Origin: a virus
Lineage: Duplodnaviria; Heunggongvirae; Uroviricota; Caudoviricetes
Length of the DNA: 6,450 nt
Reading direction: 5' to 3' (one strand)
IMG/VR virus record: IMGVR_UViG_2711768018_000010
The notes beneath the pieces are model-generated. The model was given only the letters and a program-made list of their open reading frames with translations, made no database searches and was not told where the DNA came from. Below are positions 1,903 through 5,621 of the stretch, in pieces (position 1 is the stretch's first letter; the number at the start of each line of letters is the position of its first letter). A program made the position numbers and the translations under genes.

Positions 1903-1931
1903 CAAATAAAAAAGCCTTCACTGCGGAAGGC
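1903..1931 (-). terminator. Rho-independent terminator just after the 65-aa ORF
   Basis: Minus-strand RNA GCCUUC-cgcagu-GAAGGC (6-bp stem) is followed by UUUUUUAUUUG. The stop codon of the 65-aa ORF lies inside the stem. Confidence 0.7.
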
Positions 1932-2115
1932 GTCTGTAACAACCGAACTGATAGTCTGCCAGACCCGCCATAACCAGCTGGGTCAGTATTAACTGGCAGC
2001 GTTCGCGTGAAAGGTAAGTATTCTGCGCTATCTCCCCGACTGTCGCCGGTTCGGTAACGCTTAATTCATTAAACACCACTCTGGCGGTTTCTGTCATATC
2101 CTGCTGTTTTAGCAT
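1918..2115 (-). CDS. Small hypothetical protein (65 aa), probable winged-helix/HTH DNA-binding fold
   Basis: ATG at 2115 is preceded by AAAAGGAAAAGAC (SD-like). The segment TVGEIAQNTYLSRERCQLILTQLVMAGLA has a helix-turn-helix-like pattern. It sits between two intrinsic terminators, downstream of PR'. Confidence 0.6.
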   Translation of the reverse strand: MLKQQDMTETARVVFNELSVTEPATVGEIAQNTYLSRERCQLILTQLVMAGLADYQFGCYRRLPQ

Positions 2116-2231
2116 GTCTTTTCCTTTTCCGGTTAACGTGACACACCAATAACTCTTGTCGAAAAAGCCAGCAAGCTGAAAGACAGGTATTCACCGCCAC
2201 CAGCGCGTTTACTGTACTGACGCGATTTCAG

Positions 2232-2260
2232 TCATAAAAAACCCGCTCGGCGGCGGGTTG
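2232..2260 (-). terminator. tR'-like intrinsic terminator downstream of the late promoter
   Basis: Minus-strand RNA CCCGC-cgccga-GCGGG is followed by UUUUUUAU, about 68 nt downstream of the predicted PR' start site. Confidence 0.75.
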
Positions 2261-5074: not shown

Positions 5075-5106
5075 AAAATAAAAACAAAAACCCGCCGAAG
5101 CGGGTT
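5075..5106 (-). terminator. Rho-independent terminator of the hok transcript
   Basis: Minus-strand RNA CCCGC-uucg-GCGGG (5-bp GC stem, UUCG tetraloop) is followed by UUUUUGUUUUUAUUUUC. Confidence 0.75.
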
Positions 5107-5174
5107 AAGTGTGGGTGCATTGAGGATGCCTGCCCCATCAGAGGTGGCGAGGGATTTCTCCCCCGCCTGGTCTC

Positions 5175-5330
5175 TTACTCCTCAGGTTCGTAAGCTGTGA
5201 AGACAGCGACCTCCGTCTGGCCGGTTCGAATTCGTACCTCGCAGAGGTCTTTCCTCGTTACCAGTGCCGTCACTATGACGGTTAAACAGATGACGATCAG
5301 GGCGATTAACATCGCCTTTTGCTGCTTCAT
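5175..5330 (-). CDS. hokD: Hok-family type I toxin (51 aa), HokD/RelF-like
   Basis: MKQQKAMLIALIVICLTVIVTALVTRKDLCEVRIRTGQTEVAVFTAYEPEE matches K-12 HokD (RelF) as I recall it and has the Hok single transmembrane helix. ATG at 5330 lies 9 nt after AAGGAG. Confidence 0.85.
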   Translation of the reverse strand: MKQQKAMLIALIVICLTVIVTALVTRKDLCEVRIRTGQTEVAVFTAYEPEE

Positions 5331-5387
5331 AGCCTGCTTCTCCTTGCCTTTCGGCACGTAAGAGGCTAACCTAGATTTGCCGTTCAT
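5175..5387 (-). CDS. mok-like in-frame upstream reading frame (70 codons) overlapping hok
   Basis: An in-frame ATG at 5387 (GAGG 8 nt upstream) extends Hok by 19 residues (MNGKSRLASYVPKGKEKQA). In hok/mok loci, as I recall the K-12 annotation, mok is an N-terminally extended frame sharing the hok stop (mokC 69 aa versus hokC 50 aa). Confidence 0.5.
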   Translation of the reverse strand: MNGKSRLASYVPKGKEKQAMKQQKAMLIALIVICLTVIVTALVTRKDLCEVRIRTGQTEVAVFTAYEPEE

Positions 5388-5621
5388 AGATTGAGCCTCA
5401 GATTAATGTTAAGCGTCTTGCCGGACGCGTAATGTTAACTGGGGCTTTTCTCTATCTGCCTTTTGGTGTTCATGCCTGAGACAGATAGCCTCAAGCACCC
5501 GCTGCAATTCTACTTAACTCTCCTTTTCCCGCAAACCGTTTTTATCCCCAGCGGCAAATCGAATACACCACCAGCGCCACCGCCATCGCAATTCCTACCG
5601 TTGTTAATGCTTCAGGCCAGG

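Follow-up and report, generated by a model that had tools for sequence, protein, structure and literature searches.

The stretch analysed here (the window) comprises 6,450 nucleotides (nt) of the IMG/VR virus record IMGVR_UViG_2711768018_000010 (Caudoviricetes), and the genes of interest lie on its minus strand, in the late-regulatory region of a lambdoid prophage. Between the gene for a Q antiterminator and a DNA methylase gene there is an open reading frame (ORF) of 65 amino acids (aa), 2115-1918, which is a genuine, strongly conserved phage gene. Structure prediction supports its product as a minimal stand-alone winged-helix protein, called wH in what follows. The gene is part of a cassette that consists, in order, of a terminator, a 37-nt element, the wH gene, a hairpin over its stop codon, a leader of ~130 nt, a methylase start poor in Shine-Dalgarno (SD) sequence and a LexA-type box in methylase codons 4-9. 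Taken alone the ORF is ordinary; the surrounding cassette is the part worth an experiment. The likeliest single role for wH, which our analysis proposes tentatively, is to regulate the methylase as a dedicated factor that would act on the leader, either on its RNA or on its palindromic DNA.

A preliminary description of this DNA had singled out the ORF as a small gene with a good SD sequence, and both features held: the AGGA in front of the ATG has a predicted pairing energy of -5.6 kcal/mol with the anti-SD region of 16S rRNA. Frame, start codon and SD are kept in more than 100 distinct sequences from many genera. The median pairwise ratio of nonsynonymous to synonymous change (dN/dS) was 0.12 (2985 pairs), and synonymous codon variation runs across the invariant CQLILTQLVMAGL stretch of wH. 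Since these codons vary synonymously, selection acts on the protein. The exact protein sequence was found on at least 1000 contigs, and homologues occur in prophages of Escherichia, Salmonella, Klebsiella, Citrobacter, Kluyvera, Buttiauxella, Enterobacter, Mixta and Plesiomonas, the family being confined to prophages of the Enterobacterales. It is also narrow, because an exhaustive search of 1.84 billion cluster representatives gave only 61 relatives. In E. coli the region is common, with 4851 places in 2280 of the 5426 complete genomes (~42%) and up to 8 copies per genome. PHROGs assigns the protein to a family of unknown function (phrog_331), and the names given to the family in databases are only "hypothetical" or "TrmB family". 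A longer protein starting at an ATG or GTG within the 37-nt element was considered and rejected; that codon is in frame at some loci and out of frame at others, and it is GTG in the window.

The preliminary description had also suspected a helix-turn-helix (HTH) or winged-helix-like core and had suggested structure prediction as a check. The AlphaFold2 model, built with 34 homologues, bore this out, with a mean predicted local distance difference test score (pLDDT) of 92.3 and a predicted template modelling (TM) score of 0.79. It contains helices at residues 9-16, 26-33 and 37-49 and strands at 53-56 and 59-62, which corresponds to H1-H2-H3 followed by a beta-hairpin wing. Foldseek searches of PDB and BFVD returned no specific relative, only generic winged helices (TM 0.7-0.85, E ~1e-3); the structural neighbours were MarR/OhrR/IclR regulators, the N-terminal dimerisation winged helices of O-methyltransferases, MotA and Z-alpha-like viral proteins. 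All matches in Pfam were to winged-helix families (TrmB, MarR_2, DprA_WH and HTH_24) and all were below threshold: 18.0 bits for TrmB (PF01978), whose gathering cut-off is 25.6, and 14.7 bits for MarR_2, whose cut-off is 27. No match was obtained in NCBIfam or to the HTH_3/Xre families. The protein shares three helices and a beta-hairpin with MarR, TrmB and IclR (TM 0.7-0.8), but it lacks the TrmB sensor domain and consists of the 65-aa core only, whereas MarR proteins have ~140 aa, with dimerisation helices on both the N- and the C-terminal side of the winged helix. "TrmB family", the RefSeq name, is a loose label, and a closer family assignment is not justified.

The gene that follows was assigned to the M.EcoGII/M.EcoGI family from its PF01555 match, the 349-aa length of its twin, its DPPY motif and its identity to phage 1720a-02. 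The 3' end of the gene is masked in the window by a run of N (545-794), and a listed 444-aa ORF is an artefact. The stop codon was placed at the position given in Table 1 because the twin of the enzyme, which is annotated in a 99.6%-identical genome and was also read in locus L005, has 349 aa; the DPPY motif is N-terminal. Phage 1720a-02 matches the methylase region at 95% DNA identity, and passages of PMC5778455 (Murray et al. 2018) say that this phage encodes a methyltransferase very similar to M.EcoGII. According to the same passages, M.EcoGII (349 aa) and M.EcoGI are adenine methyltransferases without sequence specificity that are encoded by prophages; they are silent in normal growth and in the lysogen, harmful if expressed constitutively, and suggested to be turned on only at prophage excision. 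The window enzyme resembles them in size, motif, prophage location and closeness to the 1720a-02 enzyme. Enzymes of this type methylate essentially every adenine, shield phage DNA from many restriction systems and harm the cell. The passages of PMC5778455 used here give no explanation of how silence is achieved and no account of an upstream wH gene, a leader or a LexA-type box. The parts of the cassette are concrete and testable: besides two terminators and the structured leader with its alternative folds, they include the atypical ribosome-binding site, the LexA-type box and a small winged-helix protein that would be dedicated to the methylase.

The two genes are closely associated. The ORF had been placed directly upstream of the methylase, and this is its position, the methylase starting at 1767 after a spacer of 150 nt. 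In 23 of the 24 species-representative loci the methylase comes directly after the same spacer. A 20-mer from the spacer was found at 121 sites in viral contigs, 108 of them with both genes. At four sites wH is followed by a truncated leader without methylase, another four are too near a contig end, and the remaining five are weighed below. The co-occurrence pattern at the 121 sites indicated that the spacer is the 5' leader of the methylase and that wH is a separable module in front of it. Among the sequenced phages carrying the ORF, approximately 21 of 23 also have the methylase. Many Stx2-converting phages have the cassette a short way upstream of their toxin genes; the Qin prophage of E. 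coli K-12 lacks it.

The leader is conserved up to the methylase ATG above the level of the wobble positions of either neighbouring gene. Its helices (Table 1) were analysed in 86 distinct versions. In P3 the pair 66-90 is UA in 43 versions, CG in 26, AU in 12 and UG in 4, with zero mismatches, and the helix is lengthened by compensating changes in two divergent lineages. The helices P1', P6 and P5 are 97-100% paired (P6 98.7%), and L027, L132 and L013, which are divergent lineages, show compensating changes; two divergent rows require a 1-nt shift in P6b. P3 and PA exclude P1', P6 and P5, so the leader has two alternative folds. Constrained folding put them 0.5 to ~10 kcal/mol apart, and the fold that pairs the UGAUC beside the AUG was the minimum or near the minimum in seven of nine representatives. 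L027 strongly favours the other (P3) fold, and the unconstrained minimum of L024 also retains P3. Conserved G-U pairing, with 85 cells in P1' and 67 in P6a, is compatible with the mRNA strand only. An RNA from the antisense strand was rejected, since it would have A-C mismatches in place of the conserved G-U pairs of P1', P6 and P5 and would gain only at the C-A mismatch of P3.

The start of the methylase has weak canonical SD pairing (median -3.25 kcal/mol, or -5.7 kcal/mol with the extended 16S tail), compared with -8.7 kcal/mol for Q and -10.7 kcal/mol for the DUF968 gene. The UGAUC(C) next to it is predicted to be able to pair with the GGAUCA of the 16S tail or, alternatively, within helix P6. 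The first base of UGAUC is at least 90% conserved. The interval 1700-2340 has no GATC (Dam site) other than the one inside UGAUC (1769-1772), which is situated one base 5' of the methylase start codon and does not vary among the 86 leaders. Further upstream is P4, at 1800-1818, a palindrome that had been named as a possible operator and that proved real and conserved. Its GCUUU/AAAGC stem is invariant, and its four central bases are GCGC, CGCG, ACGU or UGCA depending on the lineage, always self-complementary (L013, L027 and L132 included). This pattern is more easily reconciled with a DNA dyad or a kissing loop than with the loop of a simple hairpin. Rfam calls on the minus strand of 1765-1931 gave no match at gathering score, only a partial match to P26 (15.4 bits, E 1.4), and on the opposite strand of the leader P26 reached 24.2 bits against a cut-off of 36. 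An upstream ORF, AUG GGC GGC UGG UGG GUG (MGGWWV...), begins at 1895 on the minus strand and overlaps P2. In most genera it runs for 7 codons, in the E. coli type for 33, and it was judged a by-product of P2 that is probably incidental.

The ORF had been described as bracketed by two intrinsic terminators, with its stop codon in the stem of the second. Both were called by our scan: in the window T1, upstream, and T2, downstream, each consist of a GC hairpin followed directly by a U-run, with folding energies of -10.7 and -8.9 kcal/mol, respectively. The interval 1700-2450 contains 4 terminator-like sites, compared to 0.9 +/- 0.9 in shuffled sequences. A GC hairpin with a T-run is present at the T1 position in ~21 of the 24 species-representative loci, a count taken from their alignment; the automated counter misjudged the sites, absorbing A/T tracts into the stems. 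At T2 the TGA of wH (1920-1918) provides the last base of the loop and the first two bases of the 3' arm. In most other genera the T-run of this second terminator, which had been described as strong, is lost while the hairpin persists. Across all genera the hairpin is maintained by compensating changes, whereas of 48 distinct versions only 19 have a T-run (at least 5 of 8 bases) behind it, and the run is strong only in the E. coli type.

A candidate late promoter, pR', scored 8 of 12 plus an extended -10, under the scan threshold of 9 of 12, and the promoter scan of 1700-2450 returned nothing at or above that threshold. Its position 6 nt past the stop codon of Q would fit a late promoter. A promoter-proximal, -10-like pause element was read after it, and the TAACGATGGGC block is also present at other loci with related Q genes. 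The layout, together with the sigma70-dependent pause element (AACGATGGG, AACGATGGGC), presumably matches that of lambda pR'. Since this arrangement of late promoter and pause element precedes it, the first terminator can reasonably be called tR', and the terminated transcript from pR' to tR' is expected to be ~65 nt long. Expression of wH and the methylase only after Q antitermination had been proposed before; the position after the Q gene, the promoter-like site and AACGATGGG make it the expected case, although the dependence on Q itself is read from position. By these three signs wH would be the first gene of a Q-dependent late transcript. The set of Q gene, late promoter, promoter-proximal pause and immediate terminator ahead of the late genes is shared with lambdoid pR'-tR' late control and with StxS-type short transcripts; in Stx phages pR' is constitutive and transcription is terminated at tR' in lysogens (PMC7547250). 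However, StxS has 258 nt, whereas the pR'-tR' interval of the window is shorter and non-homologous, and the window has a second hairpin or terminator and a regulatory cassette inserted before the tRNA genes.

Between T1 and the wH gene, the alignment of the 24 loci has, after the hairpin and T-run, CTTGCTG-N12-CMAGAGTTATYKGTRTGTCAY (the 37-nt element), then a variable stretch and then the SD. The element is conserved, and its spacing constant, across 103 distinct upstream regions that range from E. coli to Plesiomonas. Its geometry is promoter-like, with TTGCTG (2174-2169), a 17-nt spacer and TATTGG (2151-2146); the general form, TTGCTG-17-TATYKG, has the right promoter spacing with a poor -10 that lacks the final T, and it was uncalled by the promoter scan. 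A CAGA/UCUG hairpin in the element was rejected, its window variant being uncompensated. Rfam found no family over the element, either in the search of the whole window or with lax filters over 1740-2270.

The last part of the cassette lies inside the methylase gene. A palindrome of the CTGT-N8-ACAG type with an A/T-rich spacer, as in LexA boxes, occurs once in the window, against 0.01 expected. Nearly all loci with the methylase have the box (CTGT-W8-MCAG) at this position, and although the encoded residues vary, its spacer contains only A and T. We take it to resemble the uvrB, recN and umuDC boxes. The TGTAAAAAT inside the box resembles an extended -10, and no convincing promoter was found in front of the box. 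A role as a roadblock or as an internal SOS promoter can only be guessed. An antisense SOS promoter across the box was rejected, as its -10 is lost in the E. coli type.

The closest analogy to this arrangement is found in phage Mu. Com activates the translation of mom by binding to the mRNA, according to passages of PMC6483171, and in Mu-like prophages genes homologous to com lie in front of those for non-specific adenine methylases (PMC3299994), the pairs in question being FluMu Hin1523, Pnm1 Nme1821, Hia5 and ORF47/48 of phage B3. As in Mu, a tiny gene is located directly upstream of a gene for host-harmful, broad-specificity DNA adenine modification; late expression (read from position in the window), a structured leader hiding the translation start and an enzyme silent in lysogens are further likenesses. 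The dedicated regulator is favoured because the arrangement parallels com-mom and the pairs of com with non-specific methylases. The parts differ. Com is a Cys4 zinc finger with two CxxC pairs, whereas wH, a winged helix, conserves just two Cys (C40 and C59) and has no CxxC. Com binds the leader RNA and opens the start, a function for which wH is only a candidate, pairing of the leader beside the AUG being predicted. The com and mom genes overlap, unlike the genes in the window; the methylases of the Mu-like pairs belong to other subfamilies; and the window phage is lambdoid and Q-antiterminated, not Mu-like. The control logic, a small regulator and a hidden start for a toxic anti-restriction enzyme, is known from Mu.

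In the mechanism that we propose, T1 and T2 would be passed only by Q-modified polymerase, so that the methylase would remain silent in the lysogen. The methylase start without a normal SD, sequestered by helix P6, would add a second layer of silencing, and the LexA-type box in the first codons may be a further one. Several such layers in the lysogen could be expected because the methylase is dangerous to its host. When wH and the methylase are co-transcribed, wH would act on the leader, by the same logic as Com acts on mom. A more specific form of this proposal is that wH, the two-state leader and the LexA-type box make up an undescribed control circuit for M.EcoGII-type non-specific methylases of lambdoid phages, in which wH is a switch that binds RNA or leader DNA and frees the sequestered start only in lytic growth, as a non-homologous counterpart of Com; in this full form we consider it doubtful. 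Should wH act on the leader, the cassette would represent a second answer, arrived at independently in evolution, to the problem for which Mu uses Com. Otherwise, wH is simply a common late phage gene of unknown function.

Several observations weigh against wH as a dedicated regulator. In complete E. coli genomes the 4851 places with wH compare with 2536 methylase 5' ends, so about half of the E. coli copies of wH are orphans. At 5 of the 121 viral sites an unchanged leader and the methylase are present without wH, the terminator hairpin abutting the leader; since they occur in this form, wH is not strictly required. As read from its sequence, wH is net acidic, and its helix 3 is very hydrophobic, an uncommon property in helices that recognise nucleic acids and one that might instead indicate protein-protein contacts. 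The covariation that supports the second leader fold comes from few lineages, and controls with slid partners gave similar counts of double changes. Collection of the 86 leaders relied on an exact 20-mer seed, so that the 5' arm of P2 looks more conserved than it is. The frequent orphan copies go beyond the preliminary description, as do the M.EcoGII type of the enzyme, the structured leader, the loss of the T-run at T2 and the LexA-type box.

The orphans also bear on the strongest alternative, in which wH is an independent late or "moron" gene with a target other than the methylase, for example as a regulator of host or phage genes or in anti-defence, the adjacency resulting from a shared variable slot after tR'. 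The E. coli copies without methylase are still intact and annotated, as in PhiR5_1 and phiSTEC1575-Stx2k, and the gene has its own flanking terminators and the promoter-spaced TTGCTG-17-TATYKG upstream, which is the classical moron layout; that the leader and methylase exist without wH fits as well. Nevertheless, away from E. coli chromosomes wH and the methylase are hardly ever found apart, the final T that is essential in a -10 is missing from the -10-like hexamer, and the orphans retain a truncated leader stub that makes them look like deletion products of the full cassette. On balance we regard an independent gene as possible and somewhat unlikely.

It is improbable that wH instead partners the methylase at the level of protein or DNA, as an accessory or dimerisation subunit or as a reader of adenine-methylated DNA. 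The top Foldseek matches in PDB include N-terminal winged-helix dimerisation domains of S-adenosylmethionine-dependent methyltransferases, helix 3 is invariant as well as hydrophobic, and prokaryotic winged-helix domains, for instance in DpnI, sense N6-methyladenine according to passages of PMC11037411 and its preprint. However, the structural matches are all generic, DpnI-type domains are absent from the best 50 of them, orphan copies exist, and M.EcoGII is fully active and non-specific when expressed alone, as stated in passages of PMC5778455.

The resemblance to controller (C) proteins of restriction-modification systems, which the preliminary description had offered as speculation, did not survive. 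In its favour are a small protein of a nucleic-acid-binding type beside a methylase and a conserved palindrome between the two genes. Yet wH is a winged helix and C proteins are Xre-type HTH proteins; no restriction endonuclease gene is present, the methylase being followed by STnc100 and tRNA genes; and the methylase is a non-specific orphan. The C-box, an operator upstream of the C gene itself, has a consensus of GACT..AGTC repeats, and a pattern search for GACT-N3/4-AGTC found none in 1700-2340. We consider a C protein or C-like factor very unlikely. Least probable of all is an untranslated ORF in a structured non-coding spacer between terminators, for which its shortness, the sub-threshold Pfam matches and the several conserved non-coding elements around it could be cited, but against which stand the low dN/dS with abundant synonymous change, the conserved frame, start and SD, and the confident fold prediction.

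Table 1. Positions of the cassette parts and of neighbouring features in the window.
Feature	Position	Strand	Details
wH gene	1918-2115	minus	65 aa; ATG start at 2115; RefSeq WP_000917767.1; phrog_331
SD of the wH gene	2122-2125	minus	AGGA, 6 nt before ATG
Methylase gene, readable part	795-1767	minus	PF01555, 7.7e-28; beta-class; true stop ~718, inside N-masked 545-794
Methylase 5' leader, structured	1765-1896	minus	~130 nt
Leader helix P2	1890-1879 with 1871-1860	minus	
Leader helix P3	1858-1851 with 1837-1830	minus	
Leader helix PA	1895-1891 with 1823-1819	minus	
Leader helix P1'	1896-1891 with 1855-1850	minus	
Leader helix P5	1825-1819 with 1797-1791	minus	
Leader helix P6	1842-1833 with 1779-1769	minus	
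P4 hairpin/palindrome	1800-1818	minus	CTGCTTT-GCGCA-AAAGCAG (CTGCTTTGCGCAAAAGCAG); conserved
UGAUC	1769-1773	minus	just 5' of methylase AUG; pairs with GGUCA in P6; complementary to 16S 3' tail GGAUCA
LexA-type box	1742-1757	minus	CTGT-AAAAATAT-CCAG (CTGTAAAAATATCCAG); inside methylase codons 4-9
Hairpin T2 with T6 (terminator in E. coli type)	1908-1931	minus	stem 1931-1914, 6 pairs (4 G-C); T6 1913-1908
Terminator T1 (tR'-type)	2236-2259	minus	AACCCGC-CGCCGA-GCGGGTT + T6; stem 2259-2240, 7 pairs (5 G-C); T6 to 2236
Conserved 37-nt element upstream of wH	2138-2175	minus	CTTGCTG-N12-CAAGAGTTATTGGTGTGTCAC
Pause element, -10-like, promoter-proximal (sequence reading)	2291-2300	minus	AACGATGGGC
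Candidate late promoter pR'	2307-2334	minus	TTGATT (2334-2329), 16-nt spacer, TGg-TAAATT (2315-2307)
Q antiterminator gene		minus	273 aa; PF03589, 1.6e-53
STnc100 small RNA (sRNA)	327-516	minus	full-length Rfam match, 123.6 bits, cut-off 47; between methylase and tRNA genes
tRNA-like genes, three	1-237	minus	ARAGORN: tRNA-Arg(TCG) at 83-159 only
hok/sok toxin-antisense RNA locus	5175-5500	minus	HOK_GEF, 3e-23; Rfam sok, 112 bits

The gene order on the minus strand is hok/sok, a DUF968 protein, RusA, the 273-aa Q antiterminator, the 65-aa ORF, the DNA methylase, an STnc100-family sRNA and a tRNA cluster. E. coli TOE17 contains a stretch 99.6% identical to the window, with identical annotation followed by holin and lysozyme genes. 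The wH gene is thus located between the Q gene and the lysis genes, and the same position was found in loci of other genera. Stx2-converting phages such as phiP27 and 1720a-02 have 1700-2259 in common with the window at 90-95% identity, but different Q genes. The similarity to these phages with unrelated Q genes starts exactly at the 5' foot of the tR' hairpin, which suggests a mosaic joint at 2259.

At the other end of the cassette, the tRNAs are annotated as Ile, Arg and Arg in TOE17. In addition to the gene called by ARAGORN, Rfam found one tRNA cut by the window edge and a weak one at 170-237 (23.7 bits against a cut-off of 29 bits). A weak isrK-like match was observed at 5085-5166, over the terminator adjoining hok/sok.

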